IMG/VR virus record: IMGVR_UViG_3300014205_000077
Coordinates: 1-45,544 of that record
DNA from: a virus
Reading direction: 5' to 3' (one strand)
DNA: 45,544 nt
Shown: positions 5,755 through 21,867 of the stretch, piece by piece
How the letters are laid out: every line of letters begins with the position of its first letter
How positions within the stretch are numbered: position 1 is the stretch's first letter
Translations under genes and position numbers: made by a program
The notes under the pieces: model-generated
Database searches by the model: none
What the model saw: the letters and a program-made list of their open reading frames with translations, nothing else
Told to the model about the DNA's origin: nothing

Positions 5755-6792
5755 TTATCCTCCTATTGGTATTGCAACTCCACAATCTGGACTCGGACAT
5801 ACCCAGAATGGTTTTCCATCCACATCTATCTTGTCCATATTCTCTCCACAAGTGCATTTTCTTGTTGTAGGAACTACGCCTTTCGCATCCTGTTGTGTCT
5901 TATAAAGAGCAGTAAGAGTTGCTCCTAATCCTATAACTCCCTTGTCTTTATCTCCAGTCCATTTGTCTATACATTTCTTTATTACATAGTAGTCATTCCC
6001 TGCCAATGCTTTTCCAAACTCAAAGTAAGTATCTTTTGCCAACTTTTTGTTCTCTTCGCTATCCCAGTTTGTATGTTGTAACAAATGAGATTTTGTAATG
6101 CTCGCAATCAATGAACTCATCTTCGTAGATGCTTTATATTTCGGCTCTACAGATGGAGGTGGAGGAGGAGTTGGAGTTATCGTTTCGGCATTCTTTCTTG
6201 GTAACTTGTCAAGGAAACTAATATTCGCCTCCGCTTGAGTAAAAGTATATTTAGGATGGTTCGTTGCTATCTGATTATACTTGTCAACATCTATCTTTAC
6301 TATGTTCAGTAGAGACAATATCTTTGTGATTTGTTCTGGAGTTATCAATGGCTCTGGCTTACCTACTTCTATCTTTTTGTCTGTTGCTTTTCCACCTCTT
6401 CCCTGGGCAACCTCTGCATCATTGTCATCTTGGGTTGGCGTAAGCATAATCATTGAAGCCAGTCCATATCTTCTTGCATAAGTTACTGCACTTCCATTAG
6501 ATTGTGGGTCATTCTTTACTGGATTGATTTTTAATTTACCACTAATCCATTCTCCAGAAGTATGTAACAATATCGTCTCCATTACATTTTCCCCACTAAC
6601 CACATCTGATGGTTGCAACACGCACAACCCGTTCTTCGTAAGTATTTCTTGACAGGAATCCCAACACATCTTTAGGTCGGCATATTTTGAGTGGAAAAAA
6701 GGATTCACTTTTCCCGCATATACAGAAGTTAGTTCTTTCTGAACTGCATTCATCGCCTTTGCTATTTCTATTATACTTTCTGAATGTTCCAT
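5755..6792 (-). CDS. erf: ERF-family single-strand annealing protein with C-terminal zinc ribbon
   Basis: NPFFHSKYADL, LLHTSGEW, GSAVTYARRYGL and DDND segments are typical of ERF; C-terminal CTCG...CPSPDCG. Confidence 0.85.
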   Translation of the reverse strand: MEHSESIIEIAKAMNAVQKELTSVYAGKVNPFFHSKYADLKMCWDSCQEILTKNGLCVLQPSDVVSGENVMETILLHTSGEWISGKLKINPVKNDPQSNGSAVTYARRYGLASMIMLTPTQDDNDAEVAQGRGGKATDKKIEVGKPEPLITPEQITKILSLLNIVKIDVDKYNQIATNHPKYTFTQAEANISFLDKLPRKNAETITPTPPPPPSVEPKYKASTKMSSLIASITKSHLLQHTNWDSEENKKLAKDTYFEFGKALAGNDYYVIKKCIDKWTGDKDKGVIGLGATLTALYKTQQDAKGVVPTTRKCTCGENMDKIDVDGKPFWVCPSPDCGVAIPIGG

Positions 6793-6998
6793 TATTCCTC
6801 CGTTGCATATACCGTGTAATCATATGCTCTAACTATCCCACCAACTATACTCCCATCATTATTTTCAATTACACAGGAAGTCTGGGTTACAAAATCTATA
6901 TTCTCATTCCCAGTAAAAGCACTTTCCAACCAAACGTTTGCTAACTTCTCTACATCTTCTGGTGTTCCTTTGAACACCTTGACCTTATGTTTATCCAT
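6792..6998 (-). CDS. hypothetical protein (68 aa)
   Basis: ORF coupled to erf. Confidence 0.5.
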   Translation of the reverse strand: MDKHKVKVFKGTPEDVEKLANVWLESAFTGNENIDFVTQTSCVIENNDGSIVGGIVRAYDYTVYATEE

Positions 6999-7007
6999 CT
7001 TCCCCTC

Positions 7008-7208
7008 CTATTTTATCTCACGAATTCTTCTATAACTTAAATTAATCCATTTAGAAACATCATAATATTTATCGTTTATTGCTTTAAAACTTATTTTTCC
7101 ATCTATAATATAAAATACACAAACATCTATATATTCCGCAGAATCTGGAGAGACTTCTAAAGACACCCATTTAATCAGTTAGTGTTTACCGTATAGTTTT
7201 ATCTTCAT
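7008..7208 (-). pseudogene. small all-beta paralog family member interrupted by an in-frame TAA at codon 10 (7179-7181)
   Basis: My translation MKIKLYGKH*LIKWVSLEVSPDSAEYIDVCVFYIIDGKISFKAINDKYYDVSKWINLSYRRIREIK; carries family motif IDGKISFKA. Confidence 0.5.
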
Positions 7209-7226
7209 AGTTTACGTAGCCATATA

Positions 7227-7430
7227 CTATTCTTCTGTCAATTCAATAATATTGTGCGTGATCCTATTAACAGTAATCTCAACCACATTATTTGTTTCAC
7301 TGTTTACACCTGTGCATCTGTGCATATATATTTTTCTATCAGGGCTAATCAAAAACCACAATATAAGTCCGCTATCAGTCCATACGGATGGGGTATGGGT
7401 TAGACTTGCTTCTGCAAGATATGCTTTCAT
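7227..7430 (-). CDS. small all-beta paralog family member (67 aa)
   Basis: ATGA coupling at 7427-7430; SPDRKIYMHRC motif; C-terminal ELTEE. Confidence 0.55.
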   Translation of the reverse strand: MKAYLAEASLTHTPSVWTDSGLILWFLISPDRKIYMHRCTGVNSETNNVVEITVNRITHNIIELTEE

Positions 7431-7618
7431 TCTTCCACCTCTCGTATCATTCCTTCGCTTAAGTTCAATGGGCATCCTATATGTTTATACATATGTTTAT
7501 ATATAGATATTTTTCCAGAACGCAATAAAGCAAATTGAACAATCTTTTCTCTTACTATTCCGTTATCCATTAACATAACTTCAACGTCATTCCCAGAATT
7601 GCACAACGATATTTTCAT
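7427..7618 (-). CDS. small all-beta paralog family member (63 aa)
   Basis: MKISL start; SGKISIYKH motif; ATGA coupling at both ends. Confidence 0.6.
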   Translation of the reverse strand: MKISLCNSGNDVEVMLMDNGIVREKIVQFALLRSGKISIYKHMYKHIGCPLNLSEGMIREVEE

Positions 7619-7824
7619 TCTATCTCCGTCAATTTAAGATGGTCAAGATTGAGCAATCCTCTTCCTACTGGCGTTCTCATATCATTATTAACCCAAAAAC
7701 AATTCCCAAAATATATTTTATCACCAACTATCATAAAACATCCAATCCGTATGTCCCGTATCGTAGGAGTTGTTATACTTACAAACACAAAATCATTATT
7801 TGTTATTTCAAGTTCTATAGTCAT
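7615..7824 (-). CDS. small all-beta paralog family member (69 aa)
   Basis: VGDKIYFGN motif; ends TEIE, with GGAGATAGAATGA embedding the next gene's RBS. Confidence 0.6.
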   Translation of the reverse strand: MTIELEITNNDFVFVSITTPTIRDIRIGCFMIVGDKIYFGNCFWVNNDMRTPVGRGLLNLDHLKLTEIE

Positions 7825-7825
7825 T

Positions 7826-8803
7826 TTATTCTTTAATCTCTTTTAGCCCAAATCTTGTTGTCAATTCAACTCCAGCATATTGGGATAAGGTCTCATCCTT
7901 CTTTAATATTTTCTTGAAATTGGTAATATTACAAGTCAATACTTTTTTGTCAACATATTCTTTCACTTTCTCCAAACTATTTAATGAATTGACAAATGCC
8001 ATTGTGTCAACCGTAGTTTTTGTTGAATCAAAATTCCCTATTTGTTTATCTCCGAAAGTTATTATCCCTTCTTTCTCGCATAAAGCTTTGACTAAATTCT
8101 CGCTTGCTGATGCCTGTGCCTTACTTCTCAACCACTCTTGAATTATAATGTCTCTATTCTCTCCTTTTAAGGGACTATTGCAAGACAGTGGATGATTGCA
8201 CCAATTACACCACGCACTTGGATTTATATAATTATGTTCCTTGCCCATCACTTCTTTAGCCAATGTGATATCCCTTGCGATTTCATTCTTTAACATACCC
8301 ATACTTGAGCCATCGTAAGTTTCCCCATACAACAACCATCCTCTTGGGGCGGAATATATTGCAGTATGTATCTTGTCTAATGGGTTTATATCTAACAAAG
8401 CATACGCATAATACCTTAATTGTTTCTGATATAGTTCGGACACATCATACAAATATGCAGACTTACAATCTACTATTAACAAATCCCCATTAGGCAAGAC
8501 AAGAACCTTATCTATCTTATACCTAACACTATCTTCTCCCATTAAGAAACCACCAGCAAATTCCTCATCCCATTGAGATTGGAATGGTGGCAAATTCTTA
8601 GGTGTGTGTTCTGTTATTCTTTCCAATTCTGTCCAATTCCCACTCTTTATCCCAGAATAGAAAGCTAAGTGCATCGACTTCCCATTCGCTTGGTTTTCTG
8701 TCTCAAGTATCTCCTGAACAACTCCTTTCAATCTAAGTGCCTTTTCTCGGTCACATGGCACACATAGATTGGAATGACTATAATGTATCCTTTCTTCACT
8801 CAT
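7826..8803 (-). CDS. Cas4/RecB-like PD-(D/E)xK exonuclease with Fe-S cysteine cluster
   Basis: LLIVDCKSA (D-x-K), QLRYYAYAL (QxxxY), N-terminal Cys plus CNWCNHPLSC (C-x2-C-x5-C). Confidence 0.75.
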   Translation of the reverse strand: MSEERIHYSHSNLCVPCDREKALRLKGVVQEILETENQANGKSMHLAFYSGIKSGNWTELERITEHTPKNLPPFQSQWDEEFAGGFLMGEDSVRYKIDKVLVLPNGDLLIVDCKSAYLYDVSELYQKQLRYYAYALLDINPLDKIHTAIYSAPRGWLLYGETYDGSSMGMLKNEIARDITLAKEVMGKEHNYINPSAWCNWCNHPLSCNSPLKGENRDIIIQEWLRSKAQASASENLVKALCEKEGIITFGDKQIGNFDSTKTTVDTMAFVNSLNSLEKVKEYVDKKVLTCNITNFKKILKKDETLSQYAGVELTTRFGLKEIKE

Positions 8804-8969
8804 CTTTTACCTCCTGTATAAAATTATAAAACGCATTCCATTTGAAAAAAACTATCTTACCGTTTTCTATTGTAAAACTAAAAACTATTGTATCTCCAAG
8901 CCAACATCTAACTCTTTTCGCATCTTCTTTATCATCTCCGTAAGCTTTATTGTTTAACTTTATTTTCAT
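8796..8969 (-). CDS. small all-beta paralog family member (57 aa, below the ORF-track cut-off)
   Basis: My translation MKIKLNNKAYGDDKEDAKRVRCWLGDTIVFSFTIENGKIVFFKWNAFYNFIQEVKDE; ATGA coupling at 8966-8969. Confidence 0.55.
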   Translation of the reverse strand: MKIKLNNKAYGDDKEDAKRVRCWLGDTIVFSFTIENGKIVFFKWNAFYNFIQEVKDE

Positions 8970-9160
8970 TCTATCTCCAGTATTTCTTCCCTTCTATCCA
9001 TATTGGCAACAACTGAAATAAATGCCGACTGTTTTATATTCCATTTATAAATACATAACTTACCTTTTCCCTCTATTTTTTTTACAATGCTAATAATTTT
9101 TATATCTCCAACATTAATTCTTATTATCTCATTATCTATTCTTTCTAATATTATATTCAT
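8966..9160 (-). CDS. small all-beta paralog family member (64 aa)
   Basis: GKGKLCIYKW motif; ends LEIE; ATGA coupling. Confidence 0.6.
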   Translation of the reverse strand: MNIILERIDNEIIRINVGDIKIISIVKKIEGKGKLCIYKWNIKQSAFISVVANMDRREEILEIE

Positions 9161-9336
9161 TTTATTGTTTCTATTTTACGTATTTTATTCTTATTGATAT
9201 TCTCCATACGATATAAATAATATTTATATAAACTTATCTTGTTTTTATCATATGTCTGTAGAAATCCAACTACAAGTTGCTTATCTAACTTAATTGCAAC
9301 TTCACGCTCATCATATATTTCTATTGTTATTTTCAT
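9157..9336 (-). CDS. small all-beta paralog family member (59 aa, below the ORF-track cut-off)
   Basis: My translation MKITIEIYDEREVAIKLDKQLVVGFLQTYDKNKISLYKYYLYRMENINKNKIRKIETIK. Confidence 0.55.
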   Translation of the reverse strand: MKITIEIYDEREVAIKLDKQLVVGFLQTYDKNKISLYKYYLYRMENINKNKIRKIETIK

Positions 9337-9343
9337 ATATTCC

Positions 9344-9592
9344 TTACATTAAACTTAATTGCTGTGGTGGTTTCTTTACCCATATATATTTGTGTCTATC
9401 AACTGTTCCATCTTCTTTTTTCGGATGTTCTATAATCTTACTCTCACAAAGAATTCTTGCCTTTCTTGTGGCAGTCCCGCCCATCATACCACCAAAACCA
9501 ATTCCCCATTTCTCAATATCCCAAGTTGCCATCTCTCCACCATTGCATATTTCTTCTTCTATATACTTCCTAACCTTTTCTAATTGTGTCAT
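9344..9592 (-). CDS. hypothetical protein (82 aa), possibly a winged-helix protein
   Basis: ORF within the array; no family motif. Confidence 0.5.
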   Translation of the reverse strand: MTQLEKVRKYIEEEICNGGEMATWDIEKWGIGFGGMMGGTATRKARILCESKIIEHPKKEDGTVDRHKYIWVKKPPQQLSLM

Positions 9593-9600
9593 TCCTCCCC

Positions 9601-9798
9601 CTAATCTATCTCTTGTATTGCGTTTCTTATTATCATATATACAATATTGGCATCATCAACATTTACACTTCCAATAAATCCATTGTCTGACTTTCGGAAT
9701 TGGAATACCCTACAATTATCTACTCTAACTTCTCGTATCCAAAAGATTGCATAAGCCCTATCTTCATTGTATCTCCTCCATACCTTCAAAATAGCCAT
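9601..9798 (-). CDS. small paralog family member, start uncertain (possible frameshift relative to the coupled ATG at 9767)
   Basis: SDNGFIGSV motif; ends IQEID; canonical coupled ATG 9765-9767 opens only a 15-codon frame. Confidence 0.4.
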   Translation of the reverse strand: MAILKVWRRYNEDRAYAIFWIREVRVDNCRVFQFRKSDNGFIGSVNVDDANIVYMIIRNAIQEID

Positions 9799-9976
9799 CT
9801 GCTTCTATATCACGATTCTCTTCTGTATTAGTAAAAACGCAATCGCATAAATCGTATTTCCATAGTCCAATCTTTTTCTTTGTAATATTCAAACTAAAAA
9901 GACTTACATCTTCTTCCTCTTCGTGAATTGCTTTACAACAAATCGTTCCCAATTCTACTATCAGTTTTATTTTCAT
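9764..9976 (-). CDS. small all-beta paralog family member (70 aa)
   Basis: MKIKL start; KKKIGLWKY motif. Confidence 0.55.
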   Translation of the reverse strand: MKIKLIVELGTICCKAIHEEEEDVSLFSLNITKKKIGLWKYDLCDCVFTNTEENRDIEADGYFEGMEEIQ

Positions 9977-10182
9977 TCTATTATTCTTGGTTTTGTGCCC
10001 TTTCCCATATTAAACAATCTGGTAAATTGGTTAGTCCACATTTTCATTACAATCTTATTGTTTATAATCCTAAAATCAACAACAGCCCAATGGGAAGTGT
10101 CTATCCCCACTTTATCATATAGTCTCAACCGAATACATCCTTCGCTTTTTATCAAATCTTCTAATCCAAATTTACATTTCAT
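9973..10182 (-). CDS. small all-beta paralog family member (69 aa)
   Basis: INNKIVMKMW motif; ends RIIE; ATGA coupling. Confidence 0.6.
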   Translation of the reverse strand: MKCKFGLEDLIKSEGCIRLRLYDKVGIDTSHWAVVDFRIINNKIVMKMWTNQFTRLFNMGKGTKPRIIE

Positions 10183-10183
10183 T

Positions 10184-10366
10184 TTATTCTATTTCCTTTA
10201 GGCTGTGATTTGTCCCCGTTGTATTACACATATCTTCATTTTGCCAATCCCAATAGTGCAAAACTATTTTGTCATTGCACATAAAAAATTCAAACAGAAT
10301 ATAATCCATATATCTAACTTCTAACTTTTTCTCTGATGAGAATCGTTGGGTTATATATATCTTCAT
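10184..10366 (-). CDS. small all-beta paralog family member (60 aa)
   Basis: MKIYI start; CNDKIVLHYW motif; ends KEIE. Confidence 0.6.
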   Translation of the reverse strand: MKIYITQRFSSEKKLEVRYMDYILFEFFMCNDKIVLHYWDWQNEDMCNTTGTNHSLKEIE

Positions 10367-10367
10367 T

Positions 10368-10625
10368 TTACAAGTCCTTTATTTTACCACCTTCAATCGT
10401 CTCAAACACTTTTGGATTTAAGTTTTTCATCTTCCTTAAAGATAATTTCCCATTATCCATTACTTGCAACTGTATCACTTTGTTGAATGGCTCGTCAGTC
10501 CCTTTCTCTTTACAACTTATCGTAACCAAATTGCCACCATCAGTTGACTCTGCTATAAATTCAAAATCCCCTATTGTGGCGGAGTCCCCCTCGCCACTAT
10601 CAACTTCTCTAATTTCTTCATCCAT
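10368..10625 (-). CDS. paralog family member with acidic N-terminal extension and a Gly-Gly five residues before the C-terminus (85 aa)
   Basis: MDNGKLSLRKM family motif; ...FETIEGGKIKDL end; RBS AAGGGGGAATAAA-ATG directly after the JAB gene. Confidence 0.6.
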   Translation of the reverse strand: MDEEIREVDSGEGDSATIGDFEFIAESTDGGNLVTISCKEKGTDEPFNKVIQLQVMDNGKLSLRKMKNLNPKVFETIEGGKIKDL

Positions 10626-10645: not shown

Positions 10646-11515
10646 TTAATATCCATCTCTTCCATACTGTTTATTAAACAAATCCTCTTGTTGATTCAAC
10701 AAATCCTCTTGTTGATTCAACAAATCCTCTTGTTGATTCAACAAATCTTCTGCCGCCTTATCACTGTTCCATTCCCTTATTGCCAAGTCAATCTTTGCGT
10801 CTTTATCTGTCTTTGGCGACTTACTATCCTTTCTAATCCAAATTCCCGATGCTGGGTAGTATTGGTAATTATCAAACAAATACTGTTTGGTTTCGGCATC
10901 CAATAACGCAGAAAGGAATTGCTCTGGTCTATCTTTTGTTAATTTAGGTTTATCATAGGCAACCGTAGATGGTGCAGTATAAACGTGGTCTCGTATATTC
11001 CTTTCTATAGCATTAAATATATCTGCTGGTATTTCTATAGGAGTTTCAATCGTTGCCTTTACCATAAAGTAAAGGCTATCAGAGACTTTCAATCTCAACC
11101 TATTGTCTATTATATTCCCATCTGGGTCTAATAGAATAGAGCAATCGTAATTCTTGTTAATACTTTCGTGGTCATCTACACTAAAGGAACTTACCGAAGA
11201 TGGATGTCTATGAAAAAACACATTCCATTCTGAACTTGGGTGGTCTATAATATCCACCGAAGCATACTTCACTTCTTGGGTAGGAACTAATATCTCCTGC
11301 TTTAATTCAAATCCCTTATTGGTCGTAACTCCCTTGCAAACAAAGGCGAATTCATCACCTTTATGTTTCTCATTTACCTTTATGCACATATTCTTAATGA
11401 GACTTTGGAAATCCTGTGCAATTCTAATAACAGGTTCTTTCACATTCACCCCATTATCCCAACGAGTAAGGTTGTCTTGAGAATTGGGATTCTTCCCCCA
11501 ATTATGTTTTCCCAT
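10646..11515 (-). CDS. JAB/MPN (JAMM) metallopeptidase, deubiquitinase-like, with C-terminal heptad repeats
   Basis: Exact JAMM motif H-x-H-x7-S-x2-D in FHRHPSSVSSFSVDD (codons at 11171-11212); RBS TAAGGAGGAAGA-ATG; C-terminal EDLLNQQ x3. Confidence 0.85.
   Translation of the reverse strand: MGKHNWGKNPNSQDNLTRWDNGVNVKEPVIRIAQDFQSLIKNMCIKVNEKHKGDEFAFVCKGVTTNKGFELKQEILVPTQEVKYASVDIIDHPSSEWNVFFHRHPSSVSSFSVDDHESINKNYDCSILLDPDGNIIDNRLRLKVSDSLYFMVKATIETPIEIPADIFNAIERNIRDHVYTAPSTVAYDKPKLTKDRPEQFLSALLDAETKQYLFDNYQYYPASGIWIRKDSKSPKTDKDAKIDLAIREWNSDKAAEDLLNQQEDLLNQQEDLLNQQEDLFNKQYGRDGY
10679..10752. repeat. 21-bp tandem repeat x about 3.5 (caaatcctcttgttgattcaa) encoding EDLLNQQ heptads in the JAB C-terminus
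   Basis: Three perfect copies at 10679-10741 plus a diverged partial copy. Confidence 0.9.
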
Positions 11516-11524
11516 TCTTCCTCC

Positions 11525-12742
11525 TTACCAAACATCTTTTGTAGCTTTCAAATCGTTAATAAGCTTTCGTAAATCCTTACATAAACTATTATCTATTTTG
11601 TAGTAAGCAGAATCAAAATTTATAATCTCTAATAGAGTTTGTATCTTAGTTACAAATTCTACTATTGTGCATTGTGCCATATCTCCCAAACAAATATCTC
11701 CATTCTCTTCTGTATGATAATTTCTAATGTTCGGGTGTGGAAATTCGCCCTTCAATCGTGCCAATGCACAATCAATCTTCCCACTATCTCCAATATGCCC
11801 AGAGATATCATATACTTCTCTCTTCTTTCCCATTTCATCTGGGATTGGATAGTATTTTCCCTCATACACACATTTCCTGGGAATAATATTCATTTCCAAT
11901 CCCAACGTATTATCTGAAAGAGTAACCTTATACCTATCCTTTATTGACATTGCATCTGTAAACCCCTTTGCAAAAACTTTATGTTCATTCCTTTTCGTTT
12001 CTTCCAATTCTCTATTCATAATTTCTAATTTTGAGATTATCTGTCTTTCCTTTATACTAAAAAGAGTATTCATTGTGTTTTTGTATTGGGCTATCTGTTT
12101 GTTATAGATTTCCCTATAAACCAATCCAATAGCATTTTCTTCGGAAGAGGAAATTTCTTTCATCGTAGTTTCTATCTCATACCATTTCCCCTTTACATTC
12201 ACTGTAGGTTTTGACATCAACACGGACAAGGTATTCTCTTGGCTATCACCCACTACATTCAAACTACCTGTATGCAAGAAAGAACTTCCAAAATTAGAAA
12301 CGCATTCCATTATAACAGATTCGCAATCTTGCAAGAAGTTATCCCTATATTTGAATTCATTCCAGAACTTCTTAAATCCATCACAATGGATGCCAAAGTT
12401 TCCATCTTTGGCGTGATATGTTTTCCCTGTATCGTCAAATTCAATATTCCACAGTTTCTTTAATTTGCTATAGAAAACTGAATGCCTAATTCTACCAGCT
12501 ATTACTTCATCTTTGAACCCTTTTTTTATCCCGTCTTTGTCAAAGATTCCGTATAGCGTTTTATCTTTAAGTTTCTCAAGGAACAATTCTTCCTTAATTT
12601 CCTTCTCCGTTTTCACTGTCGGAACTATCGCTTCCTCCGATGTTGACAAAGGCACTGCTGGGGTCTCCGACACCGATGGATTTAACTCCACCATTCCCGA
12701 TTGTGGGGTTGGATTCGTTGTGTCTTGCGTTATAGGTTGCAT
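11525..12742 (-). CDS. E2 (UBC-like) ubiquitin-conjugating-enzyme-like protein with a roughly 270-aa N-terminal extension
   Basis: FPHPNIRNYHTEENGDICLGD (HPN 11729-11737; Cys codon 11690-11692) followed by FVTKIQTLLEIINFDSAYY; GGAGG RBS favours ATG 12742 over GTG 12751. Confidence 0.8.
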   Translation of the reverse strand: MQPITQDTTNPTPQSGMVELNPSVSETPAVPLSTSEEAIVPTVKTEKEIKEELFLEKLKDKTLYGIFDKDGIKKGFKDEVIAGRIRHSVFYSKLKKLWNIEFDDTGKTYHAKDGNFGIHCDGFKKFWNEFKYRDNFLQDCESVIMECVSNFGSSFLHTGSLNVVGDSQENTLSVLMSKPTVNVKGKWYEIETTMKEISSSEENAIGLVYREIYNKQIAQYKNTMNTLFSIKERQIISKLEIMNRELEETKRNEHKVFAKGFTDAMSIKDRYKVTLSDNTLGLEMNIIPRKCVYEGKYYPIPDEMGKKREVYDISGHIGDSGKIDCALARLKGEFPHPNIRNYHTEENGDICLGDMAQCTIVEFVTKIQTLLEIINFDSAYYKIDNSLCKDLRKLINDLKATKDVW

Positions 12743-13475
12743 CTTCTTCACCTCCTATCTCTTCTACGATTGGCTTTTCTACTTTTATCGTTTTTATCAC
12801 TTTCGGTTTCTTTATCTTTTTTACTTCTCCAAACATCTTATTAAGCAAATCCACTACATCAATAGTAATTCTTGCAGTTGGATTATATGATTTGCTTTTC
12901 TTCACATCTTCTCGGAACAATACATTCATACACAACATCCAAGCGTTAAGTATCTGGGGCATTAAAAAAGCACCATCTGTATAACTAACAGATTCTCCCC
13001 ATACTGCTTCCATATTTGGATTCATCCAACCGCTAACACTCCTTCCGTTATTCCCAATATGTAATGGGAACGCTTCTTTCAATACGGGAAGATGCACATC
13101 CCTACAATCCAAGAAAACTATATTTGGATTTTTCTTGTCATCTAAAAACACCTTCTGCAACTCCTCATACTTGGCATCCCATTGTTCTACAGCCATATAA
13201 TCCATTCTATAGCTTAATAGGATTTCTGCCAAAGCTTGCACCTTTTTCTTACCAATATCTTCCAATCGGTAAGGACTTCTATTCAAATTAACTGCCTCCA
13301 CTGAATCAAAATCCACAAGAACTATCTTGCGACATCCTGACAGTGCGAGGAAAAGGGACACCCAACTCCCAACTCCACCACATCCTATGATTACAGCTTT
13401 TTCTGGTATCTGCAACCCTTTTATACTTAATTGCCTATCATATATATTCATAGGCAATTCTGTTATTCCATCCAT
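12594..13475 (-). CDS. E1-like (ThiF/MoeB/UBA family) adenylyltransferase
   Basis: IYDRQL, GCGGVGS nucleotide-binding loop, VLVDFDSVEAVNLNRS, LDCRD; Lys-rich then acidic tail overlaps the E2 start. Confidence 0.85.
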   Translation of the reverse strand: MDGITELPMNIYDRQLSIKGLQIPEKAVIIGCGGVGSWVSLFLALSGCRKIVLVDFDSVEAVNLNRSPYRLEDIGKKKVQALAEILLSYRMDYMAVEQWDAKYEELQKVFLDDKKNPNIVFLDCRDVHLPVLKEAFPLHIGNNGRSVSGWMNPNMEAVWGESVSYTDGAFLMPQILNAWMLCMNVLFREDVKKSKSYNPTARITIDVVDLLNKMFGEVKKIKKPKVIKTIKVEKPIVEEIGGEEDATYNARHNESNPTIGNGGVKSIGVGDPSSAFVNIGGSDSSDSENGEGN

Positions 13476-13490
13476 TTTTCTCTCACCCCC

Positions 13491-13679
13491 TTAATCTATT
13501 TGTTTCATCTCTTTGTATCCTCCGACAACATTACTATATTTTGTATTCAATTCGTAATGCTTTTTCATTACTATTTTATAGTTACCATTCCTTTCAAAAT
13601 GCACAATAAATGGATTCATTACTCCTTCAATAAAAACTTGAATTGTATTCCCTCCAATTTTTTTAATAGATATTTTCAT
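13491..13679 (-). CDS. small all-beta paralog family member (62 aa)
   Basis: MKISI start; NGNYKIVMKK motif; ...NVVGGYKEMKQID end. Confidence 0.6.
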   Translation of the reverse strand: MKISIKKIGGNTIQVFIEGVMNPFIVHFERNGNYKIVMKKHYELNTKYSNVVGGYKEMKQID

Positions 13680-13680
13680 T

Positions 13681-13863
13681 TTATTCTACCTCTTCTATTT
13701 GTCCATCATTGTTATTGCAAGAATTTTTATTCACAAAAAAATATTTATGGATACATATCTTCCCATTTGCAATGTAAAAATAAATTATCATTGTATTAAA
13801 TTTCATATCGTTCCCAAAAAGTGTAACATCAAGGCGTTCGCTTCCTTGCAATTTTATTTTCAT
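13681..13863 (-). CDS. small all-beta paralog family member (60 aa from coupled ATG 13863)
   Basis: MKIKLQ start overlaps the upstream stop (ATGA); ANGKICIHKY motif; ends IEEVE. Confidence 0.6.
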   Translation of the reverse strand: MKIKLQGSERLDVTLFGNDMKFNTMIIYFYIANGKICIHKYFFVNKNSCNNNDGQIEEVE

Positions 13864-14072
13864 TCTATTGTTTTTATATCGCAATCATAATCATTGTCAA
13901 AATTTATATATTCACCATTACATCCTTGATTTTTATACAACACAATCTTTCGTTTTAGAATTCTAAAAAATGCTATATTCCCACAATGGATATGTTTTCC
14001 ATTTTCTATTAAATGTATTTGATAGTCTTTTATCTGATGGCATTCTATTTCTTTTACTTCTATTTTAATCAT
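13860..14072 (-). CDS. small all-beta paralog family member (70 aa)
   Basis: KRKIVLYKN motif; ends KTIE. Confidence 0.6.
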   Translation of the reverse strand: MIKIEVKEIECHQIKDYQIHLIENGKHIHCGNIAFFRILKRKIVLYKNQGCNGEYINFDNDYDCDIKTIE

Positions 14073-14073
14073 A

Positions 14074-14277
14074 TTAATCTATTTCCTTCAAATTCCCACC
14101 TTTTACATAAAGAGAGTTTATTCCTGTTTCTTTTTTTAATATTATTTTATTATTCCTCTTTTTGAACATCACTAAATGTCCATTCCCAATGTTTCTTTTA
14201 TCTATAAATATAGCAACTGATATCCCACCATATACGTAATTTGATTTATTGTCAAATACTTTTATTTCTATTTTCAT
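14074..14277 (-). CDS. small all-beta paralog family member (67 aa)
   Basis: MKIEIK start; RNNKIILKK motif; ...YVKGGNLKEID end. Confidence 0.6.
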   Translation of the reverse strand: MKIEIKVFDNKSNYVYGGISVAIFIDKRNIGNGHLVMFKKRNNKIILKKETGINSLYVKGGNLKEID

Positions 14278-14377
14278 ATTAGTTAAAGGAATCCGCAGTC
14301 TGGCACAATCTTTTTATCTGCGGTTTAGGCAAAGGAGGTGAATCCGTATAGCCCCGCCAGCGATTCCCATTACTTAT

Positions 14378-14671
14378 TTATCCTTTCTTTGGCACTTCTA
14401 AACGATTTATATAAATCGTCTGTGCGGTGGTTAAGGGGAAAATTGAAGGCATCATATCTCTACCTGCACTGTCCTGTATCGTTGAAGTTGCAAAACTCGC
14501 ATCCTTTGCAATCTTCCTTACAGTATTCGCAGTAAGAGGACATTTCTCTTCAATCCTCTTATTCCCTGGGAGGACTATCGTTACATACTCATCTTTCTTT
14601 ACTATTTTCTTTGCAACTGCTTTTTTTGCAACTATCTTTTTAGTTGCCGATTTTTTCGTTACTTTTTTCAT
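14378..14671 (-). CDS. Lys-rich N-terminal tail fused to a putative beta-grasp (ubiquitin/ThiS/MoaD-like) domain ending in a terminal Gly
   Basis: KKVTKKSATKKIVAKKAVAKKIVKK tail; then a beta-beta-alpha-beta-beta pattern (YVTIVLPG / RIEEKC / TANTVRKIAKDA / TSTIQD / TIYINRLE); last codon GGA (14381-14383) before TAA. Confidence 0.45.
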   Translation of the reverse strand: MKKVTKKSATKKIVAKKAVAKKIVKKDEYVTIVLPGNKRIEEKCPLTANTVRKIAKDASFATSTIQDSAGRDMMPSIFPLTTAQTIYINRLEVPKKG

Positions 14672-14904
14672 CTAACATTCCCTGCCATATTGGTTTTATC
14701 CTTTGGTTTATCCAAAGAAATGTCAATATGACTATTATTCTCTTTTCTAAATCTACCACCGCATATTTCACATACGATTGGCAATTCCCTATCCGAGTAG
14801 TGCAATGCTATCACCTGTTGCTCGGTCAACCCTTTATCCCTTACGAGGGACTGATTCTTCTGAACAATAGAGCAATCTCTACGTTCAGAATTTGAACATT
14901 TCAT
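14668..14904 (-). CDS. hypothetical protein (78 aa)
   Basis: RBS GGAGGTAGG-ATG; ATGA coupling to the downstream gene. Confidence 0.55.
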   Translation of the reverse strand: MKCSNSERRDCSIVQKNQSLVRDKGLTEQQVIALHYSDRELPIVCEICGGRFRKENNSHIDISLDKPKDKTNMAGNVR

Positions 14905-14924
14905 CCTACCTCCTTTGTTATAAA

Positions 14925-15236
14925 TTATTCTTTCAATATAATTAAACCTTTATCGCCAGAGCCAGAGCCAGAGCAATCGCCAGAGCCATCGTCAGAGCCA
15001 TCGCCAGAGCCAGAGCCAGAGCCATCGCCAGAGCCATCGCCAGAGCCATCGCCAGAGCCATAGCCATCGCCAGAGCCATAGCCATCGCCAGAGCCATAAC
15101 CAGAGCCATCGCCAGAGCCATCGCCAGAGCCATCGCCATCGCCAGAGCTATCGCCATCGCCATAGCCATAACCAGAGCTATAGCCATAACCAGAGCCATC
15201 GCCAGAGCCATCGCCATCGTTTTTTATTTTTTCCAT
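14925..15236 (-). CDS. hyper-acidic Gly/Asp/Ser/Tyr repeat protein, (GDGSG)n, about 103 aa
   Basis: MEKIKNDGDGSGDGSGYGY...GSGDGSGDGSG...; RBS AAGGGGAG before ATG 15236; underlying 6/12-nt DNA periodicity. Confidence 0.6.
   Translation of the reverse strand: MEKIKNDGDGSGDGSGYGYSSGYGYGDGDSSGDGDGSGDGSGDGSGYGSGDGYGSGDGYGSGDGSGDGSGDGSGSGSGDGSDDGSGDCSGSGSGDKGLIILKE
14946..15218. repeat. degenerate 6/12-nt tandem repeat (gccagagccatc-like) encoding (GDGSG)n
   Basis: Visible periodicity across about 270 nt. Confidence 0.9.
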
Positions 15237-15610
15237 ATCGCAACTCCCCTTATGCTTATCCTTGCCTGTTCTGTGCAAGGTATTATCTCTATTGCTTCTG
15301 TTAAAATTATTCTTGTAACTTCACAAGGAAATTTACAAGAATTTGGATTTGCCACCCCATCCATTGCTAATTGAGACAAAGAAGCCGCACCATTCCAATA
15401 CCATAACCTTCTGGCATTCTTCATTTCAACTTCTTTCCCATTCCTTTTGACTAAATTCCCTGCAAAAACACCTGCGGATTGTGTTCTAACTACAACATAA
15501 TCCTTTTCTACCTTTTTAGAGACAGAAACTGAATCTAATGGAATGTATTTTTTCCCATTTATTTCCACAACATTCCCACCTGTTTCTTTTATACTCAATC
15601 CTTTAATCAT
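15224..15610 (-). CDS. conserved-looking hypothetical protein (128 aa)
   Basis: GGGAGG RBS favours ATG 15610; contains ARRLWYWNGAASLSQLAMDG. Confidence 0.6.
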   Translation of the reverse strand: MIKGLSIKETGGNVVEINGKKYIPLDSVSVSKKVEKDYVVVRTQSAGVFAGNLVKRNGKEVEMKNARRLWYWNGAASLSQLAMDGVANPNSCKFPCEVTRIILTEAIEIIPCTEQARISIRGVAIWKK

Positions 15611-15623
15611 TTCAATCACCTCC

Positions 15624-15785
15624 CTACTTATCTAATTTATCGGTTATTATATTTTTACCCTCAACACATTTCAAACACAATTCCATCTCTGGGTCTATTC
15701 CACCCAACTTTAGTTCTTCTAATATCTTCTTCATTTCATTTCTATCGCAATTTAGACAGAAATAATCCTGTTGCTTTGAACCCAT
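15624..15785 (-). CDS. small zinc-ribbon protein (53 aa)
   Basis: My translation MGSKQQDYFCLNCDRNEMKKILEELKLGGIDPEMELCLKCVEGKNIITDKLDK; RBS AAGGAGGAGAT-ATG. Confidence 0.45.
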   Translation of the reverse strand: MGSKQQDYFCLNCDRNEMKKILEELKLGGIDPEMELCLKCVEGKNIITDKLDK

Positions 15786-15794
15786 ATCTCCTCC

Positions 15795-15935
15795 TTACTT
15801 ATTGTTATACAATTCCAGTATTAAATGTTCTACTATGTGCAATTCCAAATCCTTAGTTGACATTCCAAGATGCTTATGTTCTTCAATCAATTCTTCTATT
15901 CTCTTTTTTGTTTTCTTATTTATTATTTCTTTCAT
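15795..15935 (-). CDS. small charged protein (46 aa)
   Basis: My translation MKEIINKKTKKRIEELIEEHKHLGMSTKDLELHIVEHLILELYNNK; G-rich RBS. Confidence 0.35.
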   Translation of the reverse strand: MKEIINKKTKKRIEELIEEHKHLGMSTKDLELHIVEHLILELYNNK

Positions 15936-16217
15936 TATTCCCCCCTTCTAATTCTTTTTGTAATATTAACCTAAATTTGCTACTTTTATCCTTGAATTTA
16001 CTATCTTCTTTATTGATTAATTTATCTGTTATTTTATTTATTATTATATCCATATTTTCCTATTATTTGCCCACGATTCACATCGTTGGTCTATTTGTTA
16101 TCCTAATGAACTATACACCAAACAATTCCTGCAATGACTAATATCCAAACCACTCCTAACAATCCACCCGCTACACAACTATCCATAAATTCACAAAAGT
16201 TCTTGTTTCTATTCATA

Positions 16218-16400
16218 TCACACCTCTACTATTTTTGTTCCATTCCAGAATATTTTTATTGACTTAACTGTATTCTTGCATTCTGTTCTAAAAGGGCAAG
16301 AACCACATCCTATTCTCTTCTTCATAGTGCAATCTATCCTAACTTCTCTCCTAAACTTATTCTTTATTGCCCTAAGCACTAATTCGTATGTTATTTCCAT
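16218..16400 (-). CDS. Cys-rich small protein (60 aa)
   Basis: CGSCPFRTEC motif. Confidence 0.5.
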   Translation of the reverse strand: MEITYELVLRAIKNKFRREVRIDCTMKKRIGCGSCPFRTECKNTVKSIKIFWNGTKIVEV

Positions 16401-16407
16401 ATATTCC

Positions 16408-16572
16408 TTAGTCTATTTTGTGTTCCGCACATCTATAAGTGGGAACATTTATCGTCTCCCCAACCAATATTCCAATTCTATCCCCATTGTCATCAAGTTC
16501 TTCCACAATCCACGCTTGGAAGTAGCTATATTTTGCATCCTTGATGCAATCTTTATGTTCACATTTTGGCAT
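16408..16572 (-). CDS. small Cys protein (54 aa)
   Basis: My translation MPKCEHKDCIKDAKYSYFQAWIVEELDDNGDRIGILVGETINVPTYRCAEHKID; RBS GAGGAGGAATA-ATG. Confidence 0.45.
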   Translation of the reverse strand: MPKCEHKDCIKDAKYSYFQAWIVEELDDNGDRIGILVGETINVPTYRCAEHKID

Positions 16573-16702
16573 TATTCCTCCTCGTTGTTATCCTCAAAGT
16601 TCTTTTCCAAATCCTTATTAAAGTCCCTATTCAACCTTAGTTGAATACTATCCATAATTACATCTGCATCCATTTTAACTCCTATCCTACATTAACAATG
16701 GT

Positions 16703-16840
16703 TTATAAATCGTCTGCCATTCCTGTCCTAACTTCCATTACTACTAAATGCCCCACATATTCATTGAAATAAAAAATTGGGCGATTCTTCTCTGTGGTGT
16801 TCTCTTGCGCATAACTTCCCACACAATATCCTATTTCCAT
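16703..16840 (-). CDS. small protein (45 aa), first ORF after the terminator
   Basis: My translation MEIGYCVGSYAQENTTEKNRPIFYFNEYVGHLVVMEVRTGMADDL; RBS GGGAGGTGG. Confidence 0.35.
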   Translation of the reverse strand: MEIGYCVGSYAQENTTEKNRPIFYFNEYVGHLVVMEVRTGMADDL

Positions 16841-16910
16841 AAAAACCACCTCCCTATCCTATTTTCTCTATTCCTATTTATTGTTTATAATTTGACTACT
16901 CATAAGAAAA

Positions 16911-16946
16911 GGGAAACCATAAGATTTTGACATCCTATGATTTCCC
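16911..16946 (-). terminator. rho-independent terminator for the orphan gene 16970..17479
   Basis: 15-bp stem GGGAAAUCAUAGGAU/AUCUUAUGGUUUCCC (two G-U pairs on the minus-strand RNA only), 6-nt loop, then UUUUCUUAU. Confidence 0.7.
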
Positions 16947-16969
16947 TTCTTTTACTTCTTATTTCTTAC

Positions 16970-17479
16970 TTATTCAGGAAAAGCAATCATTAAGTCCGAA
17001 ATTGCCTTTTTATGCCCTTCAATAGCCGTTTTCAATGTTGTTTGTTTAACGACATCGGTTTCCAATAGTAAACTTGCATTAAGCTTGTTTAAGCTTGAAT
17101 TCAAGTCTCTTGCTCGTATAATCCCAGAAGGAGTTGAAACCCAGTTACCATATTTGACAACTTTTTCAAGTCGTATAGTTTTTGCAGTTTCATAGTCAAG
17201 AACCACTGAATTCAAACCCCTACAAAGTAAATCTATTGGGCTATAATTCCCAATTCCGCCTTCTTTATTTTTGGGAAAACCAAACTTTTTCTCAAAATCA
17301 GAGTTTACTTTTTGCAATGTTTCAATTACTTCGTTGCAGCAAGTAAATTCACTTCCAATTATGTCAAAGTCCAAAACTTCTGAAGTCGCTATATCAATTT
17401 GAGAAATTGCAACTTTGCAAATCTGCTTAGACTTACTTCCGAAAGGTTTTGAGTCTGTGGTTTTTAAGTTTGTAAGCAT
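16970..17479 (-). CDS. orphan hypothetical protein (169 aa) with its own promoter/operator and terminator
   Basis: Isolated transcription unit; no motif recognised. Confidence 0.65.
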   Translation of the reverse strand: MLTNLKTTDSKPFGSKSKQICKVAISQIDIATSEVLDFDIIGSEFTCCNEVIETLQKVNSDFEKKFGFPKNKEGGIGNYSPIDLLCRGLNSVVLDYETAKTIRLEKVVKYGNWVSTPSGIIRARDLNSSLNKLNASLLLETDVVKQTTLKTAIEGHKKAISDLMIAFPE

Positions 17480-18952: not shown

Positions 18953-19029
18953 TGGGGTAAGGGGTGGGAATTAGACCAACGATTACTTGTTTCACAGACA
19001 AGCGCCTTATCCACTTGGCTACCCTTACC
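18953..19029 (-). tRNA. tRNA-His (anticodon GUG) with encoded G-1 and 3' CCA
   Basis: Hand-folded cloverleaf: G-1, acceptor GTAAGGG/CCCTTAC, D-loop AGTGGATA, anticodon stem CTTGT/ACAAG with loop CTGTGAA, T-arm GTTGG-TCTAATT-CCCAC (one mismatch), C73, CCA. Confidence 0.75.
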
Positions 19030-19331: not shown

Positions 19332-19403
19332 AGCCACTGGGGAGAATCGGACTCCCAGTCCCCTGTTTACAAAACAGGCGCTTGTCCATTAAGCTACAGT
19401 GGC
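19332..19403 (-). tRNA. tRNA-Thr (anticodon UGU)
   Basis: Perfect cloverleaf: GCCACTG-TA-GCTT-AATGGAC-AAGC-G-CCTGT-TTTGTAA-ACAGG-GGACT-GGGAG-TCCGATT-CTCCC-CAGTGGC-T. Confidence 0.85.
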
Positions 19404-20370: not shown

Positions 20371-21867
20371 TTAATAACCCGCATTCCCAAAATAATTTGT
20401 TCTATTAAAATATTCTCCCTCTTGTTCTGCTTTCCCTGGGATAAACTCATTCATTTCTATTGCACCATACTGGTCGCATTCCATAATGTGTTCATAATAA
20501 CCGTCTTTCATTGGTTTGTCTTGCTTTTTATCATATAAATAACAACCTTTCATTGCCTCTATTGTAATAGGACAACGGTTTTTGTCAACAAAATATTTAC
20601 CAGAGTTCATCCATTCCTGTATTATCTTCACTCTGTCATTAGGAGACATCCACCTATGAGTCGGATGTATGCCAAAACCCTCAAGTATCCCTATAGAAGT
20701 AACCTCTGATTTGTCAGAACTCTGTTGTCCAGCAGGGTCGCACTGGTCTTCCCATCTTGCATTTGGAAATAAGCCAGCGATATCTTCCAACACTACTTTT
20801 ATAAACTCTGACAACACTATCTTAAACCCCATCCATTCTTTTAACTTAACTTTTTCGTTATTTCTATTTATTTTCCATATGCAACACGCAGGTCTAATGT
20901 AACCAAAATCCCACTGTCTCCATAAGATGTCCCCCTCAACATAACATCTATCGTCTCCCAAGTCTATTGTCGTATCTATTGCCATTTCATCTTTCCATAG
21001 AGACGCAAAAACTGGAGTCCCCTGCACTTTCGTAAAGTCTATTTCATATTCTTGTCTAAATTGGTCGTAAGGCATTCCCTCTAATACGAGTTTCTTCCAT
21101 TTCTCACTTCTCTTTGTCTCATCCGCAGTATAATGCAAGAACATACAACGAAATTTGTTGATTTCATTTGTCCAACATCTAATGCCAGTGTCCGTATTCG
21201 GAAAGATACTCTGTTTGTGCCCATCAAATAATGACTTATAAAAGAACGTTTCCCCATTTGGAGACGAAATTCCAGTGTATCTACCAGTTGTCCCCAATGT
21301 TGGTAACGCAGAAGTGAACGCTTCCTGCGCATTTTCTTGGAAAGCTAACTCATCGGCAAGAATACCTGTTGACGTGTAGGTTCTTGGACTATCACTATCT
21401 TGAGATATTGCGTGTATGGTTGAATTGTTAGTAACTATCTTAAACATTGGTGGTTGTTTGCTTGTTTTTACCTCATACATATCTTGTATTGACTTAGGTA
21501 ACTGTTTATACATATATATTACCCTTGACAATAGAGATAACGGACTATCAAAACCAGCCATTTCTTCCTTTTTGCTCTGGAAGAAGATATAAGAGCCAGG
21601 CTTTGATAAACATTCCCACAAATACAATGCACAAAACAACCAAGAACACATAAGTTGACGAGATTTAGCTATTAACAACCTACGATTGTTTTTCCATTCC
21701 TCTGTTGTCCTTCTTAAATACCTTTTGTTAGGGAATCTATGCCTACCACCGCTCTGCGGGTCAAAGGTATACACAAAATGAGTTAAGAAAAACCACGGGT
21801 CTCGCATTGCCAATTCCCATTCAAGTCGTAGTTTCTTTAATTGTAATTGGTCGTCAAGTGTTATCAT
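20371..21867 (-). CDS. terL: terminase large subunit
   Basis: 498 aa; LLIAKSRQLMCSW ATPase-region segment, Walker B-like GILADELAF, C-terminal nuclease-like half; sits next to a small-terminase-like gene. Confidence 0.8.
   Translation of the reverse strand: MITLDDQLQLKKLRLEWELAMRDPWFFLTHFVYTFDPQSGGRHRFPNKRYLRRTTEEWKNNRRLLIAKSRQLMCSWLFCALYLWECLSKPGSYIFFQSKKEEMAGFDSPLSLLSRVIYMYKQLPKSIQDMYEVKTSKQPPMFKIVTNNSTIHAISQDSDSPRTYTSTGILADELAFQENAQEAFTSALPTLGTTGRYTGISSPNGETFFYKSLFDGHKQSIFPNTDTGIRCWTNEINKFRCMFLHYTADETKRSEKWKKLVLEGMPYDQFRQEYEIDFTKVQGTPVFASLWKDEMAIDTTIDLGDDRCYVEGDILWRQWDFGYIRPACCIWKINRNNEKVKLKEWMGFKIVLSEFIKVVLEDIAGLFPNARWEDQCDPAGQQSSDKSEVTSIGILEGFGIHPTHRWMSPNDRVKIIQEWMNSGKYFVDKNRCPITIEAMKGCYLYDKKQDKPMKDGYYEHIMECDQYGAIEMNEFIPGKAEQEGEYFNRTNYFGNAGY

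Follow-up and report, generated by a model that had tools for sequence, protein, structure and literature searches.

The DNA studied here is a viral stretch of 45,544 nucleotides (positions 1 to 45,544 of IMG/VR record IMGVR_UViG_3300014205_000077; hereafter the window). On its minus strand it carries a gene of 97 codons for a candidate ubiquitin-like protein (Ubl), together with genes for a ThiF-type E1, an E2-like protein and a JAB/MPN+ metallopeptidase. We describe the Ubl, the family to which it belongs and the genes that accompany it, and weigh the possibility that the four proteins make up a ubiquitination-like module borne by a phage.

The 97-residue protein, its homologs and their linkage to E1

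The Ubl gene occupies positions 14378–14671, stop codon included. According to the list of open reading frames (ORFs) and the reverse-strand sequence, it starts with an ATG at 14671 and ends with a GGA codon for Gly97 (14381–14383) followed by TAA (14378–14380); its translation is MKKVTKKSATKKIVAKKAVAKKIVKKDEYVTIVLPGNKRIEEKCPLTANTVRKIAKDASFATSTIQDSAGRDMMPSIFPLTTAQTIYINRLEVPKKG. Three segments can be recognized: a Lys-rich N-terminal tail (residues 2–26, positions 14594–14668), a predicted beta-grasp core (residues 29–90, 14402–14587) and a flexible C-terminal tail, L91-E-V-P-K95-K-G97 (14381–14401). The ORF list and the sequence thus bear out the position, the Lys-rich start, the following ~70 residues and the final Gly before TAA, as given in an earlier reading of the sequence by eye (hereafter the original prediction). 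The E1 gene that this prediction placed about 0.9 kb downstream is indeed found there, on the same strand and at a distance of 903 nt, with four small ORFs and no terminator-like site on the minus strand between the two genes. The Ubl ATG overlaps the stop codon of the upstream ORF (ATGA), an arrangement of translational coupling. A word-indexed search, which returned nothing but self-matches, recorded the identical 97-residue protein on two contigs. With this exact recurrence and about 40 distinct homologs, the ORF is more than a chance ORF.

We built an AlphaFold2 model from a 16-row alignment comprising the window protein and 15 homologs. The model has a beta-beta-alpha-beta-beta topology, with strands at residues 29–34, 38–43, 63–66 and 85–90 (b5) and a helix at residues 48–57, i.e. 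the same segments as those originally picked out by eye. The predicted local distance difference test (pLDDT) score of the domain block is 86–89, while residues 91–97 are non-regular and the last block has a mean pLDDT of 65. When the model was compared with the PDB using Foldseek, almost all of the top 50 matches were ubiquitin, ubiquitin variants, SUMO, ISG15 or UBX, and the top matches also included Caldiarchaeum ubiquitin and the bacterial BilA (8tyx_A). The probabilities were about 1.0, the target-normalised template-modelling scores 0.5–0.58 and the best E-value 2.9e-3; such modest E-values are expected because the domain has only 70 residues. Among the viral models of BFVD, the matches were ubiquitins of giant viruses and baculoviruses and the ubiquitin inserts of pestivirus polyproteins. 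The model and the matches in both collections support the assignment of the 97-residue protein to the ubiquitin-like beta-grasp fold. Of the likenesses first put forward, to ThiS, MoaD or ubiquitin, the structural matches bear out the last; Pfam ThiS had no match to the window Ubl or the 15 homologs at E <= 1, and MoaD had none in the 16 members.

Homologs were collected by an exhaustive HMMER search over 1.84 billion representatives, followed by profile iteration and by scans, with hidden Markov models (HMMs), of E1-anchored loci drawn from viral, genome and metagenome collections. The exhaustive search gave one true relative (P0002, E = 1e-9), a protein of 222 residues made of three tandem copies of a ~73-residue Ubl domain. 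Two other sequences from this search (P0003 and P0004) were dropped as low-complexity repeat proteins, and a Rho_N/SAP fold was rejected for P0002, the weak matches spanning a 16-residue helix-turn only. Profile searches added P0005–P0020, and the E1-locus scans raised the family to 43 distinct sequences. The family had no match in Pfam, PHROG, PADLOC or the PDB sequences, and no DNA similarity was found between the Ubl region and GenBank phages. Its members were seen in phage-like contigs only, and every homolog whose contig was inspected adjoins a ThiF gene.

Four HMMs (for the Ubl, the E1, the 360–500-residue E2-like protein and the JAB-motif protein) were run on 81 sources, namely the window and 80 loci. 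Among the 47 distinct loci with a close-family E1, 37 carry a Ubl gene on the E1 strand, that is, 37 of the 37 in which the relevant flank is present; the other 10 end at a contig edge on the side where the Ubl gene is expected (in one of them, L015, the E2-like ORF begins 180 nt from the contig end). Most of the Ubl–E1 loci also hold genes for the E2-like and JAB proteins, in the order Ubl-E2-E1-JAB (16 loci), Ubl-E1-JAB-E2 (6 loci), Ubl-E1-E2-JAB (4 loci, the window included) or E1-JAB-E2-Ubl (1 locus). That the content is conserved while the order is permuted argues strongly for a functional link of the Ubl to the E1, the E2-like protein and the JAB protein. The proposed connection between Ubl and E1 therefore held in every related locus where it could be assessed, whatever the gene order.

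The conserved C-terminal tail

The original prediction regarded the free terminal Gly as the hallmark of a modifier. The family does not bear this out: the last residue of the 43 distinct tails is Lys in 15 cases, Ala in 11, Glu in 6, Gln in 3 and Gly in only 2, with other residues in the rest. The homologs thus consistently lack a terminal Gly, and, judging from these tails, the conserved C-terminal Gly or Gly-Gly of conjugatable Ubls is not a property of this family. What is conserved instead is a motif, phi-N-x-[A/P]-[K/A], followed by 0–3 variable residues, in which the Asn two before the Lys is near-invariant. Examples are EYNEAK, AYNEAA, AYNAAK followed by GE, RE, TA, SI or VE, INQAK with or without a further Ala, and YNEPK followed by VSG; in some members (NEAA, NVAA) the Lys is replaced by Ala. 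The window sequence L-E-V-P-K95 aligns with this motif, P94-K95 corresponding to the conserved [A/P]-K and K96-G97 to the variable overhang. Since K95 aligns with the conserved Lys, the final KG of the window protein is probably a removable overhang.

Tandem genes offer a view of the same motif at internal positions. Three independent genes encode head-to-tail poly-Ubls, with three units in P0002, two in P0007 and at least three in L061. In P0002 the junctions read ...EAKS|D and ...EAKG|D and the gene ends with ...EAKQ, while P0007 ends with ...AAKTA. L061 consists of near-identical 78-residue units joined as ...EYNAAK|VDGVF..., the last of which stops exactly at the Lys. The tail motif is kept at every poly-Ubl junction and the unit boundary lies directly after the Lys, as would be expected if the mature protein ended in Lys or, in some lineages, in Ala.

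Partner proteins, the Lys-rich tail and surrounding genes

The E1 gene (12594–13475, minus strand) encodes a minimal ThiF-type protein (Pfam ThiF, E = 8.6e-20) whose adenylation domain covers about residues 9–215; its real start may be Met9 (13451). The family consists of proteins of about 205–245 residues with one adenylation domain, and across 45 sequences the GxGGxG motif, D55, D57, N63, R66, K78 and the DCRD motif are all at least 97% conserved. The sole conserved Cys lies inside DCRD, which is the Mg-site motif; there is no catalytic Cys in the crossover loop, and Tyr165 is 95% conserved. The E1 sequence is equidistant from PaaA/MccB, UBA3, TcdA, MoeB, UBA5, ThiF, Cap2 and BubCD, a comparison that covers the N-terminal Rossmann half only. 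In the window, the E1 carries an additional low-complexity C-terminal extension of ~80 residues, first Lys-rich and then acidic and rich in Gly and Ser, which is absent from the ~205-residue homologs. The 3' end of the E1 gene (12594–12751) shares 158 nt with the beginning of the E2-like ORF as called, so that the E2 start is uncertain, and a frameshift or fusion may be involved.

The E2-like protein (11525–12751, minus strand; 408 residues as called) has a C-terminal UBC-like domain with H338-P-N and Cys354. Across 33 family members C354, G356 and S381 are 100% conserved, and P340 of the HP[N/H] motif is 87% conserved. An hhalign comparison of this domain with three human E2s gave a probability of 74% (E = 2.8e-5; 117 columns), in a register that brings the HPN motif, the Cys and the subsequent helix into line; a version with 8 sequences gave only 7%. 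Pfam UQ_con matches one of 8 homologs (E = 0.004). From these motifs and alignments, the 408-residue protein is a probable E2 of the UBC type. The E2-like family ends in a conserved [DE]-[VE]-[WF] followed by 0–4 residues. A second Ubl paralog found in one locus (L028, 1498–1728) ends in ...EEYEVW in place of YNEAK, and the two similar ends may represent a shared docking motif.

The JAB/MPN+ metallopeptidase (10646–11515, minus strand; 289 residues) displays the full MPN+ motif: E55, H102-x-H104, S112 and D115 are all 100% conserved among 44 members. Pfam Prok-JAB matches 6 of 8 homologs, 2 of them above the gathering score. At the C-terminus of the window protein are three perfect EDLLNQQ heptads, for which a 21-nt tandem repeat at 10668–10751 (4.0 copies, 95% matches) codes.

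The Lys-rich N-terminal tail of the Ubl is encoded by an imperfect 15-nt tandem repeat (14601–14641) that yields KKxxx pentapeptides, and the pLDDT of residues 10–22 falls below 50 in the AlphaFold2 model, which predicts disorder. It had been described as histone-H1-like. The Lys-rich stretch is present as quoted, but its match to the Pfam HC2 profile is insignificant (E = 1; 9.9 bits for a cutoff of 40), and the likeness to histone H1 or Hc2 is one of composition only. The tail is missing in most homologs, was met again in no more than two positional analogs, both distant, and is lineage-specific, not a family feature. The original prediction offered two roles for it, that of an acceptor in chain formation and that of a nucleic-acid anchor. 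We speculate that it may anchor the Ubl, or Ubl conjugates, on nucleic acid in this phage lineage. The two analogs (L007, 2364–2747; L009, 2149–2565) lie upstream of E2-like, E1 and JAB genes. In both, an N-tail rich in Lys (MATKKKA...) precedes a beta-grasp-like domain (GIRSFSV and GLRRFSV, respectively), and the proteins end in KDAQG and KDARG. The two share homology (E = 4e-12), but the Ubl family HMM detects them only weakly or misses them; a search for further Lys-tailed, Gly-ended Ubls beside distant E1–JAB pairs found nothing beyond them.

The window, with a GC content of about 35%, amounts essentially to a single phage-like contig. The module sits among minus-strand genes, mostly uncharacterised small ORFs. 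A large-terminase homolog lies at 20371–21867, and terminase and portal genes are also present in L013. Two minus-strand tRNA genes, tRNA-His(GTG) at 18953–19028 and tRNA-Thr(TGT) at 19332–19403, are located between the genes of the early region and that for the terminase, and the plus strand holds a long block of ORFs between about 23.5 and 45.2 kb. Seventeen paralogous ORFs of 52–85 residues, often translationally coupled, lie on either side of the E1-E2-JAB genes (minus strand, 6792–10625 and 13491–14277). They share an MKIxI N-terminus, a central nGKIxxxK and a C-terminal IxEIE and have no significant Pfam match. A 117-residue ORF made almost entirely of GDGS and GYGS (14925–15278, minus strand) overlaps the 3' end of a DUF6948 gene (15224–15619). 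It contains a repeat with a 12-nt unit in about 22 copies (14952–15216), an alternative frame of which reads MAMALAMAL, and it is either coding or a mere repeat array. Beyond the window, relatives of the E1–JAB pair are found on contigs from an Acidilobaceae archaeon metagenome-assembled genome (L019–L022), binned to thermophilic archaea, and modules with an INQAK-type Ubl recur on several contigs of two metagenome datasets (L046–L052). The system may thus extend to archaeal viruses.

Known systems, proposed mechanism and alternatives

The bacterial system closest in composition is Bil (BilABCD; class 6d of Iyer et al. 2006), which likewise comprises a standalone Ubl (BilA), an E2 with a catalytic Cys (BilB), a JAB protein (BilC) and an E1 (BilD). 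BilA ends with 0–9 non-conserved residues past the reactive residue, which are removed by its JAB protein (PMC10557695; bioRxiv 10.1101/2023.09.04.556158); both BilA and BubA, the Ubl of the Bub system, are pre-processed by their own JAB peptidases to a conserved Gly (PMC10557695, PMC11601596). This Gly is universally conserved in BilA, whereas the conserved end of the phage Ubls is [A/P]-[K/A]. Bil also differs in being a host anti-phage defence operon, whereas the module described here is found in phage genomes. In addition, the BilD E1 is of the inactive-active-Cys domain type, while the phage E1 consists of just one domain (about 205 residues) and has no conserved catalytic Cys, and the phage E2 keeps the HP[N/H] motif, unlike the class 6d E2s, which do not have the classical His (PMC1779556). 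The PADLOC models had no match to the phage Ubl, E2 or JAB protein.

The Bub system (6E/DUF6527) shares other traits with the phage module. Its E1 is a minimal adenylation domain of the homodimer type, with no Cys in the crossover loop but an invariant Tyr there, and Tyr370 of BubCD has been proposed to act as an acyl relay (PMC11601596). The phage E1 is similarly devoid of a conserved Cys outside DCRD and has its well-conserved Tyr165. The Bub Ubls, which can contain 1–3 beta-grasp domains and whose reactive end is exposed by a JAB protein, resemble the phage poly-Ubls. By contrast, Gly is the conserved last residue of the Bub Ubl, the Bub E2 uses a Ser (oxyester) where the Cys of the phage E2 is invariant in the 33 sequences, and Bub includes Ubl-E2 or E2-E1 and JAB-E1 fusions as well as a serine protease, BubE (DUF6527), whereas the phage genes are all separate. 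No Pfam match to DUF6527 was found among the ten ORFs scanned in 10646–17479. As for the eukaryotic cascade of polyubiquitin, E1, E2 and deubiquitinase, the phage module resembles it in the poly-Ubl genes of the relatives, some of them capped by 1–2 residues after the last unit (...EAKQ in P0002, ...AAKTA in P0007), in the HPN...Cys signature of its E2 and in its beta-grasp domain with a flexible tail. It differs from that cascade in that it has no LRGG end and no E1 thioester domain, its deubiquitinase type is JAB only, and it is encoded by prokaryotic viruses. Going by these features, the module belongs neither to Bil nor to Bub, and its Ubl does not belong to the conserved-Gly Ubls.

A distantly related module of the same kind occurs in cultured phages, the Flavobacterium phages Fpv3 and FpV4 (Fipvunavirus), as genes gp55–gp51. 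In Fpv3 (our locus L080; NC_031904.1, 59351–69560) these genes are annotated as hypothetical, except for gp52, whose label of 'thiamine biosynthesis protein ThiF' probably misstates its function. The N-terminus of gp55 is Ubl-like (BFVD match A0A1B0WKU8) and ends in ...KQVKSGG, after which comes an acidic extension of 200 residues. The JAB HMM recognises gp53 (E = 9e-11), and gp52 is an E1 of the ThiF type (about 44% identity over 70 residues); gp54 escaped the E2 HMM and shows a possible H-x-H...C-x-G motif. The literature searched contained no functional study of Fpv3 or FpV4 gp51–gp55.

We think it fairly probable that the 97-residue Ubl is the modifier of a four-component ubiquitination-like module in a tailed phage, consisting of the Ubl, the ThiF-type E1, the E2-like protein and the JAB/MPN+ protein. 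The analysis shows the fold of the Ubl, the family of its homologs, their obligate synteny with the partner genes, the conserved catalytic residues and the motif at the C-terminus; every catalytic step, the place of processing, the proteins modified and the role of the module are inferred, as follows. The JAB peptidase would trim the variable overhang (K96-G97, or G97 alone) and expose the [A/P]-K end (P94-K95), and the same cut would free monomers from the poly-Ubl precursors of the relatives. The E1 would then adenylate the exposed C-terminal carboxylate. Because the E1 has no conserved Cys outside DCRD, the acyl group would pass to Cys354 of the E2 without an E1 thioester, either directly or via Tyr165. 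The E2 would move the Ubl onto lysines of host or phage proteins, which its N-terminal region of ~250 residues could recognise, as has been proposed for target selection by the long N-terminal region of BilB; the JAB protein could reverse the modification. As the module lies among minus-strand genes and its Fpv3 relatives are neighbours of genes for a primase, UDG and exonuclease VIII, it could plausibly act early in infection, be it in host takeover, counter-defence or the control of DNA transactions.

A fuller picture, to which we give less than even credence, is that tailed phages, possibly of thermophiles, carry a self-contained minimal cascade. It would consist of a mono- or poly-Ubl precursor matured by the JAB protein to Lys or Ala and not Gly, a Cys-less single-domain E1 and a eukaryote-like HPN-Cys E2, and it would tag host or phage proteins, e.g. 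for counter-defence or for nucleoid or replication control. In the window, the modifier would bear the Lys-rich tail in addition.

Several observations weigh against this interpretation. To our knowledge, there is no precedent for Lys, or for any bulky residue, as the C-terminus of an E1-activated Ubl. The cleavage site could lie after the conserved Ala/Pro, one residue before the Lys. The window Ubl is an outlier of its family (LEVPK for a consensus YNEAK), and four small genes unrelated to it separate it from the E1 gene. A comparison of E1, E2 and JAB alignment columns with K-type and A-type Ubl tails gave nothing interpretable as co-variation, the data comprising few independent lineages and conservative changes only. 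The identity of the E2 rests on the motifs and the hhalign probability given above, and HMM searches of PDB sequences with the E2-like protein found no E2.

Gly97 could also be used directly in this one protein, the E1 adenylating its carboxylate with no prior processing, as for ubiquitin, ThiS and MoaD. The ORF does end in Gly, as do three other overhangs (PK-K-G in the window, PK-VS-G in L034, AK-DAQ-G in L007 and SK-DAR-G in L009), and the characterised E1-activated Ubls of PMC10557695 and PMC11601596 all end in this residue. We nevertheless regard direct use as unlikely: Gly is the last residue of only two of the 43 tails, the overhangs GE, SI, TA, RE, VE and NY are unfit as a Gly end, the poly-Ubl units part after Lys, and the window tail runs 7 residues past b5, compared with 4 in ubiquitin and 5 in the K-terminated members. 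The prominence of Lys, the usual acceptor residue, with a near-invariant Asn two positions earlier, is in turn compatible with a beta-grasp partner that is not conjugated. Such a protein would bind the E1, E2 and JAB proteins as a regulator, a scaffold or an acceptor modified on its near-terminal Lys, or would have its tail modified by a nucleotide or small molecule in the manner of MccB and PaaA. These two proteins are the best PDB sequence matches of the N-terminal half of the E1, which has no catalytic Cys. However, they only marginally outscore UBA3, MoeB and UBA5, over a generic Rossmann half. Furthermore, since Ala replaces Lys in the NEAA and NVAA members, the Lys side chain is dispensable. 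The conserved partnership with an invariant-Cys E2 and a JAB isopeptidase is a signature of protein conjugation, and the head-to-tail genes mimic polyubiquitin precursors, which together make a non-conjugated role quite improbable.

The same partners bear on the idea of a ThiS/MoaD-like sulfur carrier, thiocarboxylated by a ThiF/MoeB-like enzyme for the synthesis of a cofactor or thionucleoside. Although the E1 matches Pfam ThiF and GenBank gives its Fpv3 counterpart a thiamine-biosynthesis label, the module always includes the E2-like Cys protein and the JAB protein, the family tails show no Gly-Gly end, Pfam ThiS and MoaD have no match in the 16 members, and no rhodanese, cysteine desulfurase, ThiG/ThiH or MoaE was found among the neighbours scanned; we consider a sulfur carrier very improbable. 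It could finally be argued that the 97-residue protein is incidental and that the real modifiers are the 17 small paralogs around the E1-E2-JAB genes, four of which lie between Ubl and E1 and seven just downstream of the JAB gene, and some of which have a Gly-Gly 5–8 residues from their end (tails KGGNLKEID, VVGGYKEMKQID and IEGGKIKDL). We give this hardly any credence, because their AlphaFold2 model is a four-stranded all-beta structure with no helix and a low confidence (pLDDT 64) and their family is confined to the window. Indeed, the paralog HMM finds none in the 80 other loci, whereas the 97-residue family is always present, and the Ubl HMM gives no match to the paralogs. A modifier processed to an [A/P]-[K/A] end and working with the E1, E2 and JAB proteins thus remains the reading that we favour.

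What is new in this module is that it appears to be a phage-borne variant of the bacterial ubiquitination-like systems of the Bil and Bub type, with conjugation as its inferred activity; a literature search for a phage-encoded system of Ubl, E1, E2 and JAB proteins found no description of one. At least 47 distinct contigs, which come from many environments, hold the module, and none of the libraries searched annotates it. The nearest known systems, Bil, Bub and the Cap2/Cap3 proteins of the cyclic-oligonucleotide-based anti-phage signalling system (CBASS), as characterised so far, are host-encoded and tied to anti-phage defence, whereas here viruses carry a full Ubl-E1-E2-JAB set. A Lys or Ala end, if true, would contradict the rule of a terminal Gly in E1-activated modifiers, and the very small E1 (about 205 residues) and the E2 with its eukaryotic HPN-Cys signature both bear on the evolution of the eukaryotic cascade. 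The module could also serve as a compact orthogonal conjugation tool. If it is active, phages would run their own protein tagging, which raises the question of its targets.

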